DNA of 33,699 bases from a virus. Taxonomy: Duplodnaviria > Caudoviricetes. This document shows positions 4,597 through 33,558 of the stretch, piece after piece. A program made the translations under genes and the position numbers. The stretch spans positions 1-33,699 of IMG/VR virus record IMGVR_UViG_3300048598_000076; one strand, given 5' to 3'. Every line of letters starts with the position of its first letter. The first letter of the stretch is position 1. The notes beneath the pieces are model-generated. The model saw only the letters and a list, made by a program, of their open reading frames with translations. It was not told the origin of the DNA and did no database searches.

Positions 4597-4910
4597 GAGT
4601 TGATTAGTTCGTGCGCGTCGTGCCACTGCTTGTGCTTCCAAACCAGACTCTCAAATTCAAGCCTGACCTGGATTCCTCGGTGTGGATCAATGCGCATTTT
4701 GACCGCGTAGGCATATTTTCCTCCTGGCATATCAGCCGTTCGGTATGGCTTTCCGAGTCGGTATCCGCGGACTGAAGAGTTGGGTGCCATGATTCGTTCT
4801 GGCGTTTCAGCCGATTTGCGCACCACCTGAACGATTTCATCCGCACTGACTCCAATAGCGTTTTTCCTGCACAGCAGATCGTTAATATCTCTCGTGAGTT
4901 GGTCAGTCAT
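4593..4910 (-). CDS. hypothetical protein (105 aa)
   Basis: Bounded by junction motifs at both ends; AAAGGA upstream of the ATG. Confidence 0.7.
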   Translation of the reverse strand: MTDQLTRDINDLLCRKNAIGVSADEIVQVVRKSAETPERIMAPNSSVRGYRLGKPYRTADMPGGKYAYAVKMRIDPHRGIQVRLEFESLVWKHKQWHDAHELINS

Positions 4911-23536: not shown

Positions 23537-25063
23537 TTAGTATTTTTTTTCGATTGTTAATATGTATACCAAAAGATTCCCGGTGATCGTGCTGTTGTTC
23601 TTCTTCAAGTAGACATTCGTCGCGGCGGTAAGCGAAAAAGGAACCTTCTTTAAGGAGTCCGCTTGGAGTAGTGCAATGGCGGATACATCAAGCGCCGACA
23701 CCACGGCGGCAGGCGTGCCAGAGGTTCCAACCGAAAGAGTTATCCCGGTGCCGAAGCCTTCGGAGACGTTGGCTTGGAACTCAACAGGAACCCAACCAGC
23801 AGGGATGGCAGTGAGTAGGGTGGTGCCAGCAAGGCTGCTGATGGCAGAGTGAAGAATTGAACCCCGAATGTTCACCCGCTGGCCTACAATATCGCGGGTT
23901 GTTGCTGGGACAGCCCCGCTGCCTAACACCCAATCGCGAGCTGCACCGGACGAGTCGGGGTAGTTGGGGCCCAACCCGTTCCAGTTGGGGTCCATTTCGG
24001 CAACGCATCCAAGGACTTCTACCTTATAGGAGAAACTTGCAGACGTATTTGGGGGAAATTTACAAAAAAAGCCATAGGAAGTATTGGCTTCCAAATTAGT
24101 CCTCGAATAAACTCCATCAGCAACACCACTAACAGGTTGATTATTCATCAGATAAAAAGTAACATCTCCACTAACGGAAGCCCCCATAATTGTAATACGT
24201 ATTTGTTTTCCAGCAAGAAGGTTGTTGCCTGAGGATGTATAGAGATTCAGATAAAGATCCGATGCACTGGTATTATTTATATTTACCGCTGAAGCCGTTG
24301 CCGTTCCGTAACTTAAAGCTCCCCCACCGATGGTATCTATCACCTTTTCCCCCGCTCCACCACTAGCGTACCACCAGTTTGGATATTGCCCCTTTGTCGC
24401 CAGCGCGACCGCTTCAGCATCGGTGAATGACCCGAGGTAGGCGGCGCTGCGATGGAAGCCGGAAGATTGGTTTGCCCCATTGATACTTCCCGCGTCTATA
24501 TAGGTCATGTCAACCACCTGAGACCACGCTGGGGGAGTGCCTCCGGTTGATTCCGCAATTGCTAGAGTCGTTCCGTTTACCCGAGGAACAAACGTAGTGC
24601 CATTAAGCTCGCACTGAAGCAAGATGCGTTGGCCTGAATAAGTTGTCCGCGCTCCAGTAATAGTTGCGAGCCGATAATCTGTTGATGCCGTCGCGCCATA
24701 CAGCCAGAACTCAAGATTGTTGCCGTACCAGCTTAGCTTAGCTGAATACGCAGAGCCATCCACACCAGCCAATGAGAACGCGGCTATTACTTGCCTAGTG
24801 CCAACGCTCGCGGTTGGGGTGTCGATTCTAGCCAGTAACCCCTTGCTCCCTGCCACCTGGCCCAAAGCCGTGTAGCATGGTATTCTCCCCTGTGTCCCCG
24901 GCAAGAGAAGCCCTTGAGGAGATGGGCGAGAAGCAAACATCGACGATAATACTGTAGTCTTTAGTTTTCGTGACCCATTTATTACGCCATCGGTTCCAAT
25001 GTAGTCGTCAGGGTCTAGCGACGTTGCTTCGTTCGTGCGGTCTTTTACGCGTAATTGTGTCAT
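23537..25063 (-). CDS. putative receptor-binding / appendage protein with a lectin (LamG/ConA)-like beta-rich domain
   Basis: 508 aa, G/S/T/A-rich and beta-rich; short N-terminal attachment-type segment (DDYIGTDG..GSRK). The fold call is tentative. Confidence 0.55.
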   Translation of the reverse strand: MTQLRVKDRTNEATSLDPDDYIGTDGVINGSRKLKTTVLSSMFASRPSPQGLLLPGTQGRIPCYTALGQVAGSKGLLARIDTPTASVGTRQVIAAFSLAGVDGSAYSAKLSWYGNNLEFWLYGATASTDYRLATITGARTTYSGQRILLQCELNGTTFVPRVNGTTLAIAESTGGTPPAWSQVVDMTYIDAGSINGANQSSGFHRSAAYLGSFTDAEAVALATKGQYPNWWYASGGAGEKVIDTIGGGALSYGTATASAVNINNTSASDLYLNLYTSSGNNLLAGKQIRITIMGASVSGDVTFYLMNNQPVSGVADGVYSRTNLEANTSYGFFCKFPPNTSASFSYKVEVLGCVAEMDPNWNGLGPNYPDSSGAARDWVLGSGAVPATTRDIVGQRVNIRGSILHSAISSLAGTTLLTAIPAGWVPVEFQANVSEGFGTGITLSVGTSGTPAAVVSALDVSAIALLQADSLKKVPFSLTAATNVYLKKNNSTITGNLLVYILTIEKKY

Positions 25064-25955: not shown

Positions 25956-26281
25956 GAGATGGTTGGTTTGTTGATTGTAATATAGCCCGTGAGCGCCACG
26001 GACTTTTGCGCGGATGTTTCTCCGATGATTGTGAAATGGTAAGAGCCGGATAAATCGTCAGACTGCGAGGCAGGAATCGTGATGAGTACGGTAGCGGTTG
26101 CGGTGGTCGTGCTCGTAACGCTGATACCAGAGCCGAGCGTTTTGCTAATCAGTACGGCGGCGTCTTTCGACGTGCGAAGCTCGAAGCGGCAGCCTGTCAG
26201 AGTGAGCGCGCCGCTTGACTCGGTAAGCACGGCGGAAAGCAGCATGTCCTCGCCTGCGGTGAATGTGATATGGTCACTCAT
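25952..26281 (-). CDS. BppU-N-like Ig-type structural protein
   Basis: AGED......LTG..F.LR......LI.K..GSGI.......I.I......L.G.Y........LTG.I.I. Confidence 0.55.
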   Translation of the reverse strand: MSDHITFTAGEDMLLSAVLTESSGALTLTGCRFELRTSKDAAVLISKTLGSGISVTSTTTATATVLITIPASQSDDLSGSYHFTIIGETSAQKSVALTGYITINKPTIS

Positions 26282-26859
26282 GCGACAAAGCCTCCAATGC
26301 GGTGCATCTCGAGAAGTGCGCGGAATGCGTGCGGAACTTCAGTGACGATGTTTCCTATATTTACGGACGCGCGAACGTCATAAAGATGCGCGATCTGCAA
26401 AAGCATCGCCTGCCTTAAGCCGTGCGGAATCGTGCTCGGTGTGGTGGAGTAGGTGACGCGCACGGCATCAGGACGAATTGCCAGCGCTGGGAAACTGTAG
26501 CTGTCCTTGAAGATCACGCGCGAAGGTTCCCCCTCGGCAAGAAAGTAGTTGCTCGCATCGACCGTGACCGCGGCGCCGTAGCCATCGGGAAGATAATCAA
26601 TCGTTGTGATTGAGGAGGCTGGAGAGCGGTCAAGGTCGATGGAGTAGGTAGTCTCTGGCCAGTCGGCGCAGAGCAGCTTGCGAGTCTCGGCGGCCAGCGC
26701 GCGGCCCGTCAGCATTTCGACTTGTGTGCGCACTGCCTGAATCAGAGATGCAATGTAGTCTTCATCTGCCGTGTCACTGACACGGCAATGACCCATTGCC
26801 TCTTGAACCGTCACAGGCTCAAGCGCGGCAGGCGTGACAAGTATCGTTGAAGTTCGCAT
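26278..26859 (-). CDS. head-tail adaptor (HK97 gp6 / SPP1 gp15-like)
   Basis: P..EPVT..EA..H.RV....ED.YI..LI.A....E..TGRAL...P..LRQAMLL..AHLY..R. Confidence 0.92.
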   Translation of the reverse strand: MRTSTILVTPAALEPVTVQEAMGHCRVSDTADEDYIASLIQAVRTQVEMLTGRALAAETRKLLCADWPETTYSIDLDRSPASSITTIDYLPDGYGAAVTVDASNYFLAEGEPSRVIFKDSYSFPALAIRPDAVRVTYSTTPSTIPHGLRQAMLLQIAHLYDVRASVNIGNIVTEVPHAFRALLEMHRIGGFVA

Positions 26860-26915: not shown

Positions 26916-27827
26916 TTAAGCGGTGCCAGATGCAGCGCCTACGAATGACTCGCCGGTCACGCCAGTCGGCTGCGTGGTCGGCTCCGATGCGTTGCCGTAA
27001 ACAATCGCCTCAGAACTTGCGACGACTGCGTTTTGCGTCGCGCGCGAAACGTAGAGGCGAAGGTTCGGAAGGCGCGGCTTGCTGATGTCGATATATAAAA
27101 CCGTTCCGTCTGCAGTGTCGGCAACCGTCTGCGAAGTGCCGCTGATGTCGGCGAATGAGTAGTTGAGCGTCCGAAGCTCAAGGTCCTCGGTTGCGGTCGC
27201 TGCCCATGAGCTGCCATCGTTGGCCTGACTATTGCCACCAGAGGCCACGGTCAGCGAACGCCAGATGATATTGACAGTGCCAGAAACGTCGTAATCGCCA
27301 GCGAGAACGAAGTGGTACTTCGTTGTTGCGGCGAGGTCGACGGGCTTTGAGAATGTGAACTTCACCCAATCAAATGTAGTTCCGATGCTTGAGCAAAGCA
27401 CAGTGCCAGCGGTGCCGAGCGCGGTGCCAGTCGGTGCGCCTGAGTTGTCGCCCTCGACGGTAAGCGTTAATATTTTCCCTGCCGCGATTGTGCCAGCGCG
27501 CTTGAGCATCAGCCACACCGAGTCAACCTGGGAAGCGGCTACGGTGGTATAAGTAGCGGCAAGCTTGACTTTTGAGTTCGCTGCCTCGCGAAGCTCATTT
27601 AGGGTTTCGCCTGCGACGGTCTTGTCGATCAAAATAGCGGAATCGGCGGAGTGCTGCGCCTTGATGGAGGTTTCGGCCCCACTGGTGATTACTCCGAACG
27701 TGGTAACGATCAAAGCGCCCTCTGCGCCAGCCATGTCAATGACAGCGCCAGGAATCGCGGTTGTTCCAGCTGCGCCCTCGGTAGGCGTAATGCACTGGAC
27801 GATACGGGAAGATTTGATAAGTTGCAT
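26916..27827 (-). CDS. capsid decoration/cement-like protein with an inserted domain
   Basis: VIDMAG.EG...K.QHS.DS / FADISGT...IDI.KP...LRL.V.R flanks interrupted by ~160 aa; start MQLIKSS after AAAGGA. Confidence 0.6.
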   Translation of the reverse strand: MQLIKSSRIVQCITPTEGAAGTTAIPGAVIDMAGAEGALIVTTFGVITSGAETSIKAQHSADSAILIDKTVAGETLNELREAANSKVKLAATYTTVAASQVDSVWLMLKRAGTIAAGKILTLTVEGDNSGAPTGTALGTAGTVLCSSIGTTFDWVKFTFSKPVDLAATTKYHFVLAGDYDVSGTVNIIWRSLTVASGGNSQANDGSSWAATATEDLELRTLNYSFADISGTSQTVADTADGTVLYIDISKPRLPNLRLYVSRATQNAVVASSEAIVYGNASEPTTQPTGVTGESFVGAASGTA

Positions 27828-27828
27828 G

Positions 27829-28038
27829 TTATCCTTTGCGATTACGCCGAATCCTCGGCGCTTCTGCGGTTTCTGTGTGAAGGATTGGAAGCGCCGCACA
27901 CTCAATGACTGGCTCCGCGCTTGTCGCGTACCCACCGCGCACGAGGGCTAGCGCCTCTTCGTTTGGCAGGTCTGCTTCCTGACCCGGCTGGATAGTTCCA
28001 GCCGGACCAGCATAAAGCGTGATTAGCGTCACTTTCAC
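27829..28038 (-). CDS. small head-associated protein
   Basis: MKV.L.T.YAGP.G...PG...D....EA..LV..GYA, common immediately after HK97-type capsid genes. Confidence 0.75.
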   Translation of the reverse strand: MKVTLITLYAGPAGTIQPGQEADLPNEEALALVRGGYATSAEPVIECAALPILHTETAEAPRIRRNRKG

Positions 28039-29293: not shown

Positions 29294-29872
29294 TCAGAGG
29301 GTCATGGAAAGAAGCTTGAGGCGTGCGGCGTTGAGCCGGTCGCTTGCGGCAGTGTCGCCCGTGTTGCCGATGGCGCTTTGCACCGAACGCGCGGCAATGC
29401 TCGTCTCGGGGTAAGCGGGCATGGTGACTGGAGAGACTTCGTGAAGTTCAACGTCGATCAGCTCGCGAAGGACAATGCCGTCTGCGCGCGTCACCTCGTC
29501 GTTAATGGTCGAGAAACTGAAGGACATGCCCTCGATGTTTCCGCTCTTCACGTCCGCAAGAACGTCACGCGCCGAAGATGAATCATTGAGCGTAATTTCC
29601 ACGCGCAAACCCTTGTCGTCCTCTTCTAGCTTGAGCGTGCCCTTGCTGCGCCTGGCAAGCGGTCGGCTGCGGTCATGGTGAGCAAGCGCAAGAATATCAT
29701 CGTTTGCCTCAAGCGAGCGCTTGAATGCACCCTTGCGGATAACCTCAAAGAAGCCGCCGAGGTCGAGAGAGCGGGAATTAAATAGCGCGGCGTAACCAAC
29801 AAGCACGCTTGGCTTTCCTTCTTCAGATCGCAGCTCAATGCCTTTCAGTGCGCGTTTTTCAAAGTCTTTCAT
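29294..29872 (-). CDS. prohead maturation protease (HK97 family)
   Basis: LVGYAALFN..S.DLGGF.E.I..GAF, AL.HHD, GMSFSF, L.EVSPVT.PAYP.T; start MKDFEKR. Confidence 0.95.
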   Translation of the reverse strand: MKDFEKRALKGIELRSEEGKPSVLVGYAALFNSRSLDLGGFFEVIRKGAFKRSLEANDDILALAHHDRSRPLARRSKGTLKLEEDDKGLRVEITLNDSSSARDVLADVKSGNIEGMSFSFSTINDEVTRADGIVLRELIDVELHEVSPVTMPAYPETSIAARSVQSAIGNTGDTAASDRLNAARLKLLSMTL

Positions 29873-31145
29873 TGCGTTCCTTTTTTGGCTCGGTGATTGC
29901 GCCGAGCCGAGTAAAGTTAAGCGGCTGCATATAGCCGTCTCCACCCTCTATGCGGTTCTGATCCTCCAGGTCGCGAACATCATTCGGTGACAGCCAACCA
30001 CCCTCTCTCCCGATGCGGTAAGCCTCGTATCGGCTTTTCATGTCGCCACGCAAAAGCCCGTCGATTGAGAACTTGATGAAGTAGATCTTGCGCTCTGATG
30101 GAGTTAGAAGAACGCGGTTCATCCGCTGCTCCCATCTGACAATATGTGGAAGCATGCAGTCGGTGACAAACTCGATGGCCTGATGCTCGATGTTCGAGAA
30201 TGTCGCGTTCGTCAGGTCTGCAATCTTGTGCGGAGGAACACGGAAGATTCGCGCGATGTCGGTTACTTGAAATTTGCGCGTATCCAAAAACTGCGCATCC
30301 TCATTGCTCATCGAGTTTGGGTTGTACTTAAGCCCACCCCAAACAACGCCGACCGAAGATTGATTATGGCCAGTTTGCGCGTTGGTCCACTCCTCCTTCA
30401 GCCTTCGCACCTGATCCGGCGTCAGATTACCAGGAGCCTCAAGCACGCCAGAAGGCTTTGCGCCATTACCGAAGAAGCGAGCTCCATGCTCTTCTGTGGC
30501 CATTGCCAGCCCGATTGATTCGCGGGCAAGCGTGATGGGTGAATAGCCCATGAGCCCGTCAGGGCCAAGGCCGCGAACGTGAAGAAGTTCGCCACCGTTG
30601 AAAATTTCGCGAGATCCGTCGCGGTGCGTGAAAGAGTAGTACGGCTTACCACCATTCTCGAATACAGCAACGCGGTCAGGCGCAAGCGGATCAATGGATA
30701 CGACGTTGCCTGCACCATTTCTGCGCACAGCAGCATAGCTATTTCCACGTAGACAGATATGAGACTGCATTAGCTCGCGCAGTTCGTATGATGTCATCAG
30801 GTCATTCGGTGAGTCGTGCAACACTGAATACAAGGGATGATCAACAGCAATATCCTTATCGTTACCATTACGCCGGTATAGATGTAGTGGAAGCGCAGCA
30901 AGTGTGCTTGATATGACTCCTACACATGCATTTACGGCAGACACCTTAAGCGCGGTGCCGATTGATACATTTGCTCCTGAAGCAGTAGGCTGATCAAACA
31001 GCGCCCCAGCCTTGTCGCTTTCGATTGGATACGAAACAAGCGCCGAGCGAACGGCAGCGCTGAAGAGCGAGGAAATGCCAAAGCGGTCTGCGAGCTTACC
31101 AGCTGCGGACTTTACCCAAGAACGGGCTTCGCTTCTTTGTGCCAC
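29859..31145 (-). CDS. portal protein (HK97 family)
   Basis: SAVNACV..IS..LA.LP, L.GNSYA, G.SPI...RE.IG, FF.NGA.P.GVL, DAQFL.TRKFQ..DIARIFRVPPH, FSNIEHQ. Confidence 0.97.
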   Translation of the reverse strand: MAQRSEARSWVKSAAGKLADRFGISSLFSAAVRSALVSYPIESDKAGALFDQPTASGANVSIGTALKVSAVNACVGVISSTLAALPLHLYRRNGNDKDIAVDHPLYSVLHDSPNDLMTSYELRELMQSHICLRGNSYAAVRRNGAGNVVSIDPLAPDRVAVFENGGKPYYSFTHRDGSREIFNGGELLHVRGLGPDGLMGYSPITLARESIGLAMATEEHGARFFGNGAKPSGVLEAPGNLTPDQVRRLKEEWTNAQTGHNQSSVGVVWGGLKYNPNSMSNEDAQFLDTRKFQVTDIARIFRVPPHKIADLTNATFSNIEHQAIEFVTDCMLPHIVRWEQRMNRVLLTPSERKIYFIKFSIDGLLRGDMKSRYEAYRIGREGGWLSPNDVRDLEDQNRIEGGDGYMQPLNFTRLGAITEPKKERNERL

Positions 31146-31200: not shown

Positions 31201-31236
31201 TGTCCGCTATGTCCGCTTGTGTCCGTTGTGTCCGCT
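31201..31236. repeat. four direct repeats TGTCCG(C/T)T
   Basis: Copies start at 31201, 31210, 31220 and 31229 (spacing 9, 10, 9) in the HTH-portal intergenic gap. Confidence 0.9.
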
Positions 31237-31247
31237 AATAATGGATA

Positions 31248-31529
31248 CTATAAGGAAGCGAACCCTGCGCACGTCGGCGCTTTGCTGCAGAACATTGACA
31301 GGCTCTCAGCGTCGATCTGGATGCGGCGCGGCCCAACCCTGCGCCCAGTGATGAAACCTTTTGACCACCAGCGAACGATTGTTTTTTGCGAGACTCCGTA
31401 AGCCTTGGCTGCGTCTTGCGTCCAGAGCCACTGCTCCGGCTTGCCTGGCTTCAAAACAAACGAGCCATCACCACGCGGCAAAAGCTCGGCGCCTGAGATT
31501 ATGTAAAGTCGTCTTGGTTCTTCGTTCAT
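31248..31529 (-). CDS. MerR/Xis-like winged HTH protein between terL and portal
   Basis: WLWTQDAAKAYGVSQKTIVRWWSKGFITGRRVGPRRIQIDAESL; ATG overlaps the terL stop (ATGA). Confidence 0.85.
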   Translation of the reverse strand: MNEEPRRLYIISGAELLPRGDGSFVLKPGKPEQWLWTQDAAKAYGVSQKTIVRWWSKGFITGRRVGPRRIQIDAESLSMFCSKAPTCAGFASL

Positions 31530-33163
31530 AGCGATGCAAACCCGAAGCCGCACGGCGCGGCAGTAGTCATGTCAAGGCCGGTTGCCATGATAGACGCGAC
31601 AATGCCGTCGATGCGCTCGCGGGATTTTTTCTTACTCGGTTTGATGTTCTCCGCTGCGTCGGTTTCTTTCGCGACATGGCCGACCATCCAACGAAGGATT
31701 GGGTTTCCATAGTGGCAAAACTCCCTGCGCAGTATTTGCTTTTCAAATTCCTTGCTCGCCGGGCTCATCGTCTGAAAGCCTTGTCGGAAACTAGTCACGG
31801 CGATTCCGGCTCCTTGAAGCCGTGTCGCCATTGCGGTTGCGTTCCAAGGGTCGAACGCAAGCCCTGTGATTGGCGTCTGCTCGTTCATTGCGATAATGTC
31901 GCGCAGAATGAAGTCGTAGTCCACCACATTGCCGGGCGTTGTGCGCAAGAATCCCTGCCTCACCCATACGTCGTAAGGTACACGATCGCGCTTTACACGC
32001 TCCTTCATTGCTTCATCTGGAACCCAAAAAGTAGGAAGCAATATTGCCGGCGCGCCGTCGACGCGGATTCGGCGAACAAAGGCGGCAAGGTCAATGCTTG
32101 TTGAAAGGTCAAGGCCAGCAACGCAGCTCATTCCCGACACATCCGGCACCTCTTCTTTTCCTGCGCACGCATCCCATGCGCCTAGGTCAAGCCATCGCTC
32201 ATCAGCCTGTACCCATATATTTAGCTGCTTAGTGAGGAATGTATTTAGCTTTCCTGGCGTGGCTTTTGCGAGATCGCTTTGCTTGCGCATGTAGTCCTCG
32301 CTTTTAGCCTCACCGAGAAGTGGATTTGCTTTGTGCCACGTCGCTGGATCATGCGGGTCATCACCATCATCTGCCGAAAATATGATTCCAAAAACGCTAT
32401 CAGCTTGTATTCGCTTTTCGAGAACAGAGCACACTAGCGTGCGCCGCTCCATGCATATTCCCGTGTGATTGCTTCCTGCGGTCGTGATAGCAAACCCAAG
32501 CGGCTGCACTCGCGCGCCCATGCCATCTTCGATTACGTCGAGCAAGTCGCGATTCGTCCAGGCGTGCAGTTCGTCATAGAGCGCGGTCGATGGGTTTAGG
32601 CCGTCGAGCGTTTCAGAATCAGACCCTAGCGGCTTCCATGTAGAGTCTCGATCATCCCAGCGAATTTCTTTTACGCGCAAGGCAAGCCGCTTTGATAGCG
32701 CAGAGCTTCGCTTAATCATCGCGCGACCATCCTTCCATCCGATCTTGGCCTGATCCTCCTTGGTTGCAACGCTGTAAACCTCGGCTCCGCGCTCCTCTAG
32801 TAGACCAAGAATGCCTACACCAGCCGACAGTGTAGTTTTTCCGTTCTTACGGGGAACCTCGACGTAAGCAAAATCAAAGCGACGCTTTCCGCCTCGCTCG
32901 ACCTTCCATCCGTAGATGCTGCCGATGATAAACTCTTGCGATGGGTGAAGCTTGAACGGCCTGCCAGCAAACTGCCCCTTGTAGTGCCGGAGCTTCGGAA
33001 AAATGCTGATAGCCTGGTCTGCCGCCTTCGGGTCGAAGTAGAACTTGCCTGCCTGCAGATCATCCATGTGCCGCTGACAGGCAAGGCGCTCCCATTTACA
33101 ACCGACGCGAACGCCAGATAAAACGCTCTGGGCGTAGGCGGTGACTGGATCGATGTGCCTCAT
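31526..33163 (-). CDS. terL: terminase large subunit
   Basis: Walker A VPRKNGKT, Walker B LYDELH, motif III ITTAG, nuclease GLDLS and RIDGIVA. Confidence 0.97.
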   Translation of the reverse strand: MRHIDPVTAYAQSVLSGVRVGCKWERLACQRHMDDLQAGKFYFDPKAADQAISIFPKLRHYKGQFAGRPFKLHPSQEFIIGSIYGWKVERGGKRRFDFAYVEVPRKNGKTTLSAGVGILGLLEERGAEVYSVATKEDQAKIGWKDGRAMIKRSSALSKRLALRVKEIRWDDRDSTWKPLGSDSETLDGLNPSTALYDELHAWTNRDLLDVIEDGMGARVQPLGFAITTAGSNHTGICMERRTLVCSVLEKRIQADSVFGIIFSADDGDDPHDPATWHKANPLLGEAKSEDYMRKQSDLAKATPGKLNTFLTKQLNIWVQADERWLDLGAWDACAGKEEVPDVSGMSCVAGLDLSTSIDLAAFVRRIRVDGAPAILLPTFWVPDEAMKERVKRDRVPYDVWVRQGFLRTTPGNVVDYDFILRDIIAMNEQTPITGLAFDPWNATAMATRLQGAGIAVTSFRQGFQTMSPASKEFEKQILRREFCHYGNPILRWMVGHVAKETDAAENIKPSKKKSRERIDGIVASIMATGLDMTTAAPCGFGFASL

Positions 33164-33558
33164 TTAATAAAGCCCGAGAACTCATCCGCCTCAGCAGCCT
33201 GCGACTTTGGCACCCTGGCGCGGTCGACGGGCGAGAACCCAAGCTTGGCGGCAGCGGTGAACATCTCGCGCTTGCGAATACCGATTGCCTTGAGCAGCGG
33301 ATTTACGACCGGACCTTGCGGCCCGTTAATAGTTTCCTTGCCGCGCAAGTCCTGCTCCATGCGCGATACGTCCGCCCATGCCTGCGCGTAGGTCGCTAGG
33401 ATCGCCATGTCTGCGTGAGTCATTGAGCTGCCCAGGAGCTTTGCCGCGCGTGTGTATTCGGCGCGGCCTGCATCATCGAGCCATGCAGGAGGCCGAGGCG
33501 TGCCGGCGCGAAATGAGACTGCGCCTGTATGTTTTGGAGCTGGTCCGCGTGTTCCCAT
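33160..33558 (-). CDS. terS: terminase small subunit (P27 family)
   Basis: MG.RGP.P...PP.WL......EY...D...L..Y........VNP.........LGFSP..R.R; ATGA overlap with terL. Confidence 0.93.
   Translation of the reverse strand: MGTRGPAPKHTGAVSFRAGTPRPPAWLDDAGRAEYTRAAKLLGSSMTHADMAILATYAQAWADVSRMEQDLRGKETINGPQGPVVNPLLKAIGIRKREMFTAAAKLGFSPVDRARVPKSQAAEADEFSGFIK

Follow-up and report, generated by a model that had tools for sequence, protein, structure and literature searches.

A small DNA-binding protein with a terminase-like C-terminal tail, encoded between terL and the portal gene, and its possible part in coupling phage head assembly to transcription

Why should a small DNA-binding protein, encoded between the large terminase (terL) and portal genes of a tailed phage, end in the same residues as the terminase itself? 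The question is raised by IMG/VR record IMGVR_UViG_3300048598_000076 (Caudoviricetes), a linear contig about 50% complete, whose 33,699 nucleotides are referred to here as the window. Its minus strand carries, in order, terS, terL, a gene for a 93-aa helix-turn-helix (HTH) protein, and the portal, protease, capsid and gp6-like adaptor genes (Table 1). The ATG of the HTH gene overlaps the terL stop codon (ATGA), and terS lies 141 bp from where the record ends. Verrucomicrobia genomes contain the closest named TerL relatives (~43% identity), and one homologue of the HTH protein was found in an Opitutales genome, which together point weakly to a Verrucomicrobia host; the TerL proteins of cultured phages are less than 42% identical to that of the window among the matches listed. 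Two large proteins, encoded after the capsid gene (26916-27935) and in the neck region (23537-25063), have no Pfam match and may be decoration or fibre proteins. The window TerS ends in DEFSGFIK (33163-33186) and its close relatives in DEFDAFVK or DAFAKFIK; this end is conserved and perhaps serves as the TerL-binding motif.

Table 1. Features of the packaging and head region of the window
Feature	Position	Strand	Basis
terS (P27 family)	33160..33558	-	Pfam PF05119
terL, HK97-type large terminase, 545 aa	31526..33163	-	Pfam PF03354 (TerL_ATPase) and PF20441 (TerL_nuclease); phrog_9
TerL C-terminal tail, AP-CGF-GFASL-stop	31526..31558	-	free, unstructured in single-chain model
BldC/Xis-like winged-HTH gene, 93 aa	31248..31529	-	weak HTH_17; PDB sequence and fold matches
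HTH C-terminal tail, AP-TCA-GFASL-stop	31248..31280	-	outside folded domain; pLDDT <50
Four CGGACA direct repeats, likely HTH binding array	31201..31234	-	spacing 9, 10, 9 bp
Portal gene, GTG start	29859..31145	-	Pfam PF04860
Portal clip region, residues 228-279	30309..30464	-	predicted tail receptor; charge anti-correlation
gp6-like head-tail adaptor, end HRIGGFVA-stop	26278..26859	-	Pfam PF05135

A shared C-terminal end on a terminase and a winged-helix protein

TerL ends in TTAAPCGFGFASL and the 93-aa protein in CSKAPTCAGFASL. Re-reading the DNA confirmed what a sequence-only reading of this stretch had reported, that both proteins end AP-xxx-GFASL and that the shared GFASL is spelled differently in the two genes: GGG TTT GCA TCG CTA in terL and GGG TTC GCT TCC TTA in the HTH gene, with synonymous differences at four of the five codons. 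With the composition of the 27 proteins of the window, the probability that a given pair agrees by chance at its last five residues is ~1.2e-6, rising to 4e-4 when all 351 pairs are counted. The six frames of the window contain three instances of the pattern GF[AV][SA]L?-stop, which was chosen after the data had been seen: the ends of TerL, the HTH protein and the head-tail adaptor. In single-chain models, residues 537-545 of TerL lie free beyond the last helix (pLDDT <50), and the last five residues of the HTH protein (89-93) are likewise of low confidence. The HTH protein thus has a free extreme C-terminal peptide of the TerL and adaptor type.

The AlphaFold model of the HTH protein has an N-terminal hairpin and a winged-helix core (helices 37-44, 48-57 and 74-83 plus the wing) ahead of this tail; the core is MerR-like, without a coiled-coil dimer or an effector domain. 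At the sequence level, the Pfam match to HTH_17 falls under the curated cut-off (E 1e-4), and the matches to PHROG families of excisionases, RDFs and MerR proteins are weak. A 17-row profile searched against the PDB recovered Pukovnik Xis and BldC (4j2n, 6ama and 6amk), with E-values of 5e-8 for 4j2n and 1e-3 for BldC. The top ranks of a fold search were BldC, Xis, RdfS, RacA and the DNA-binding domain of gpNu1 (target TM 0.7-0.8, none at E<=0.001). By its modelled fold, the protein belongs to the BldC/Xis class. It shares this class with RdfS and phage D29 Gp36, and these proteins bind tandem direct repeats; four tandem CGGACA direct repeats, spaced by about one helical turn, lie beside the HTH gene. 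It differs from the BldC family in the extra hairpin, the TerL-like tail and the position in a packaging operon.

Two narrower identities were considered and rejected. An excisionase or RDF, expected beside an integrase or att site, is disfavoured by the position of the gene between terL and portal and by the weak PHROG matches. A gpNu1-type small terminase, which has an oligomerisation and TerL-binding region besides its wHTH and is encoded upstream of terL, is disfavoured by the length of 93 aa, the position downstream of terL and the presence of a separate P27-family terS; the likeness to lambda gpNu1 is confined to the DNA-binding fold, and the fold match is weak.

The tail across terL-portal loci

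With TerL as the query, we drew 362 loci from collections of viruses, metagenomes and genomes; 333 include the whole terL 3' end, and 246 are distinct. We clustered the open reading frames on the terL strand between terL and portal, using queries without their last 12 residues. Four HTH-like families follow terL: A1, the family of the window (2 loci), A2 (17 loci), A3 (5 loci) and A4 (16 loci), cut to 30 members once near-duplicates were removed. Weak Pfam HTH matches occur only in A1 and some A3 and A4 members, and we infer the HTH-like character of A2. Two further families served as controls, B (37 loci, reduced to 29) and C (10 loci, reduced to 9). TerL was chosen as the query because a direct search of viral contigs for relatives of the HTH protein found no locus with the single protein and two with a 4-row alignment. 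Among 401 genomes a related TerL was found in five and an HTH homologue in three.

The stretch between terL and portal is a hot spot for insertions and can carry as much as 2.4 kb of additional genes (L003 2362-3186, L041, L049, L050, L052, L061 and L099, the last with an HU/IHF-like gene). Because the search covered the terL strand, HTH genes on the opposite strand were counted among the "other" loci; one of these, in L212 (2161-2391, minus strand, between terL and portal), is HTH-like, has no TerL-like tail and is accompanied by a GCGACAA array ahead of portal. Family B proteins (60-105 aa, e.g., L112 4682-4921) also follow terL, terminate in basic residues and have named genome matches that include Bacteroidota; this family may be another head-gene regulator.

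A Phi-x-x-Phi-COOH end is present in 17 of the 29 A proteins other than that of the window and in 96 of 217 TerL proteins, and is scarce in the controls (B, from the same interval, 3/29; C, 0/9; TerS, 6/165; portals, 4/132). The other 12 A proteins are without the motif. Scored with a profile of 268 other TerL tails, 15 of 30 HTH tails exceed 0, compared with one of 30 when the same proteins are shifted by seven residues. Of 30 short A1 homologues that the representative search gave, from other or unknown contexts, three scored above 0 and 27 at or below 0. Adaptor ends score higher on this profile than portal and TerS ends (adaptor rows L006 and L013 were excluded from this scoring and from the charge correlation below). 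The tail is seen in at least three HTH families, with matched TerL and HTH ends such as AVSFSLL/RVSVSVL (L033), PDIGFAQL/PEIGISNL (L049), RGLRVI/KRLRIV (L058) and PGMVFDDE/PEMSVID (L037). Unmatched pairs are PGVFVW/TITSNT (L011), GLFFLS/RGTKKT (L015) and QGITFI/WRDRQK (L045); the motif is absent both from L011, the closest same-family neighbour of the window protein, and from P0003, which is 64% identical.

The A1-family genes of L032, L398 and L399 lie among Mu-like prophage genes, where genes of this family are placed at the junction of early and late genes, a long way from terL. These homologues terminate in PxNHLK or RTFERTQ, and the TerL proteins found in the same genomes end otherwise (for L398, the TerL compared is on a different contig). 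Since A1 proteins in this setting end differently from TerL, the sequences compared tie the tail to a location downstream of an HK97-type terL and not to the HTH family. The PxNHLK end is itself conserved in a set of A1 proteins (L398 1179-1466, L399 1501-1767, P0128, P0129, P0136, P0140, P0157 and P0177, two of which are in Mu-like prophages). The same set carries an N-terminal QLxLF, which we take to resemble the sliding-clamp motif.

Whether each tail follows its own TerL is a finer question. Cognate pairs match better than shuffled pairs (p 4.5e-4 overall, 0.0097 within families), and without the window p is 0.001-0.008 overall (about 0.003) and 0.016-0.03 within families over six settings. 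It is A2 that carries the signal (p 0.0026). A3 gave no cognate match (p 0.92), and neither did A4 within the family (p 0.40), where the TerL tails scarcely differ. When each clade is represented by a single member, significance is lost (median p 0.064 with 17 clades and 0.11 with 12), and fine co-variation between the two tails is for this reason only suggestive. The sequence-only reading had proposed comparing the two C-termini over phages with this gene order. That comparison largely bears its idea out, in that the tail is enriched and matches its cognate TerL overall; the limits are the loss of significance once clades are collapsed and the relatives without the motif. On the TerL tree, there are at least five changes of HTH family; the window (A1) falls inside an A2 clade and L037 (A3) beside L040 and L041 (A2). 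The tails of the window and L037 match the local TerL despite the switch of family, acidic ends included.

As to origin, the tail may have arisen when the 3' end of terL was copied. At positions with identical residues in the two tails, the codon is the same at 18 of 38, close to the 14.8 expected from codon usage. This gives no sign of recent DNA copying, and recent duplication was rejected as the whole explanation. Read-through or frameshift fusion between TerL and the HTH protein was also rejected, since the spacing from stop to start varies from -3 to +26, sometimes with genes between, so that the frame is not conserved. It is unlikely, in our view, that the tail is a functionless relic or coincidence, brought in together with the HTH gene as a duplicate of the 3' end of terL, or shaped by DNA repeats acting on its codons. 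Such an origin would suit the relatives without the tail, the failure of the clade-collapsed test, the identity in the window of both AP codons (GCG CCG) and of the GGG codon, and four loci (L001, L004, L033 and L037) in which the repeat array overlaps the tail codons and DNA constraint may shape the tail. It is opposed by residues that are kept while codons diverge, by the occurrence of the tail in several HTH families, by tail codons that lie outside the array in the window and in family A4, and by tail charges that track the portal clip. As far as the alignments tell, it is the protein sequence of the tail that is conserved, and not every relative has it.

The portal clip as predicted receptor of the tails

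The extreme C-terminus of the T3 large terminase takes part in prohead and portal binding. In lambda, the last five residues of TerL are needed for prohead binding, and their loss abolishes it (PMC4856287), as the sequence-only reading had assumed. In SPP1, the last five residues of the adaptor gp15 enter a clip pocket formed by three portal subunits, and this pocket is used in turn by the terminase and gp15 (PMC9701221); the adaptor hook of RcGTA is similar (PMC7296036). In HK97, the TerL nuclease domains lie beneath the clip, with the tail contact not resolved in the parts of the reports available to us (10.1101/2023.02.24.529869, PMC7617512, PMC9410871).

We compared the charge of the last six TerL residues with that of the clip, whose bounds in Table 1 are our assignment from sequence and known portal layout. 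The two are anti-correlated (rho -0.46) over 142 portals less than 80% identical to one another. The anti-correlation is confined to clip windows (rho -0.06 for the portal without its clip), apart from a weak signal in one portal window outside the clip (r -0.16). TerS tails and portal tails gave null results, none of 49 internal TerL 6-mers reached -0.3, and the 6-mer adjoining the tail shares part of the signal. Phylogenetic independent contrasts support the relation (r -0.32, p 5e-5); a count of sister pairs was null (nine opposite, eight same). HTH tails point in the same direction (rho -0.54, n=20), largely owing to four A4 and two acidic-tail loci, and so do adaptor tails (rho -0.47, n=21, not de-duplicated and from few clades). 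Adaptors of the gp6 type, to which that of the window belongs, are of a class that docks in the portal clip. Close relatives of the window adaptor, whose last residues are encoded at 26278-26304, end in NRIGGFIG, HRVEGWVG or KRVGGWVA, and adaptors of the RGLRV[IL] clade in KKVRV, KIRSV or RVRRKI.

Because tail charge complements clip charge, the clip is the candidate shared receptor, and judged from these sequences the tail probably binds the clip pocket. The sequence-only reading had suggested docking on the portal site of TerL; the charge data point to the clip as that site, and the facultative nature of the tail limits the idea. The HTH protein resembles lambda gpA, SPP1 gp15 and the RcGTA adaptor hook in having a short extreme C-terminal peptide with predicted clip docking. 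Unlike the known clip ligands, which are parts of the motor or the virion, it is a DNA-binding protein and a predicted third ligand.

Two other uses of such a tail appear quite improbable to us. One is that the tail only caps the clip, blocking early docking of the adaptor or TerL, or access by host sensors, with the DNA-binding role separate. Three proteins with the same end type would agree with this, as would the host defence protein SpbK, which docks on the portal clip (PMC12847820); SpbK does so via a folded domain, unlike the tail peptide considered here. A mere cap leaves unexplained why the tail is joined to regulators of several families that have an array at the portal promoter. The other is that the tail acts as a degron common to both proteins, its hydrophobic end sending them to a host protease, or that it binds some other phage protein as its receptor. 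Non-polar C-termini are known protease signals and the motif is simple. Yet a conserved host protease needs no phage-specific matching, some matched pairs end in acidic residues, and tail charge follows the clip; the TerL tail is not folded back on TerL in the single-chain model.

Repeats at the portal promoter and a proposed assembly feedback

The CGGACA array lies 14-47 bp past the HTH stop codon, ahead of the portal gene. Its three adjacent pairs compare with none in 100 shuffles, and it is unique as an array in the window. Within 140 bp ahead of the portal start, and with each phage allowed its own repeat unit, helix-phased repeats were found at 12 of 24 A loci, compared with 13 of 133 other loci (p 1.6e-5); of the 17 B loci, three have them. 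Anchoring the test on the HTH stop instead of the portal start gave a weaker result (9/30), and the gap from array to portal start is maintained despite inserts of up to 2.4 kb after the HTH gene. At L055, L057 and L058, it stops a few bases upstream of a -35-like hexamer (by eye, with no shuffle control). These three loci and L001, L004, L122 and L131 have, ahead of portal, a hexamer starting with TT, a 16-17 bp spacer and a second, -10-like hexamer 5-7 bp from the portal start (also by eye). Most array-associated portals start with GTG. A GTG start about 6 nt past a -10-like hexamer suggests leaderless portal mRNAs from a sigma-70-like promoter in these relatives, possibly with low portal output. 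In the window itself, a sigma-70 promoter scan returned no sites and the match upstream of portal is poor. Two loci, L006 (~2080-2105) and L007 (~4635-4665), have arrays without an HTH gene in the interval; an A2-family gene was not found in these partial records, and the gene for their regulator may lie outside the interval.

Head-to-tail binding to direct repeats is known for BldC (PMC5859096), and D29 Gp36, the best-studied of the BldC-like proteins in phages, is a repressor acting via direct repeats (PMC12266134). On sequence grounds, we hold with good confidence that the array is a putative binding site of the HTH protein and that the protein controls the portal promoter. Where the sequence-only reading left a choice between gene regulation and packaging initiation, the position of the array at the portal promoter favours the former.

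The packaging role survives in another form, in which the HTH protein, bound to an array that lies ~2.5 kb from the record end, would catch proheads via the clip pocket and tether them to DNA; packaging of the phage's own DNA would then be favoured, with TerL tails later displacing the HTH protein. The same tail and clip evidence speaks for such a tether, the fold has its weak match to the gpNu1 DNA-binding domain, terS lies close to the record end and the HTH gene is translationally coupled to terL. We nevertheless think both the tether and its consequence improbable: the distance of the array is conserved relative to portal and not to terS or the genome end, the array abuts -35-like hexamers, the phage has its own TerS, and the same-family genes of Mu-like prophages are located far from terL.

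The preferred reading, transcriptional feedback, starts from the gene order, ATGA overlap, fold class, array and tail statistics observed in the window and across phages. The regulator would be made together with TerL by translational coupling, would likely bind the phased CGGACA array and would likely activate portal-protease-capsid transcription, while its tail, of the TerL type in most lineages, and those of TerL and the adaptor would dock in one and the same clip pocket. The protein would be kept away from DNA by free portal or empty proheads, and head-gene transcription would be damped; as TerL or the adaptor fills the 12 pockets, free HTH protein would rise. We give this joined model, a portal-promoter activator titrated by empty portal pockets, an even chance. 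The sign of control is its least certain part because D29 Gp36, unlike the activator proposed here, represses (PMC12266134); activation with negative feedback is put forward with rather less than even confidence. More tentative still is the wider reading of an assembly checkpoint by mimicry, in which several unrelated small transcription factors independently gained a TerL docking tail, empty proheads absorb the head-gene activator until packaging or capping by the adaptor frees it, and head output is matched to packaging.

Among known systems, the late transcriptional regulators of the Ltr group include RinA, LtrC, ArpU and their kin. The Ltr proteins of Gram-positive phages activate via repeats before terS (PMC3753634). 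As in that account, the window has a small phage DNA-binding protein next to repeats that lie upstream of a promoter for morphogenesis genes. In relatives, the place of the array upstream of -35-like hexamers hints at activation of late transcription. The account as available places ltr genes last in the early cluster, upstream of terS, whereas the HTH gene follows terL and its array precedes portal; the HTH fold is BldC/Xis-like, and a terminase-like tail is absent from the available part of the Ltr description (PMC3753634). The HTH protein has no Pfam or PHROG match to the Ltr family, and no pair of CGGACA repeats occurs elsewhere in the window, in a record that ends 141 bp before terS. The protein would work like an Ltr-type late regulator but, judged by sequence and position, is not a member of that group.

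In the flagellar FlgM/sigma-28 system, the state of a machine sets the availability of a transcription factor through export of an anti-activator. The logic proposed here is alike; the means differs, being mimicry of a docking peptide and not anti-activator export. A search of mainly open-access literature found no terL-coupled DNA-binding protein with a terminase-like tail. The feature is real and recurs, and is apparently undescribed, although its parts are known.

These observations touch on two open questions, how head output is balanced against packaging and how TerL grips the portal in HK97-type motors. Three matching ends in one genome and a clip charge mirrored over 142 portals lead to a testable five-residue peptide and pocket. 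If the feedback is true, the HTH protein would be a transcription factor able to sense the assembly state of the virion, and its tail would serve as a natural peptide with which to probe the packaging vertex.
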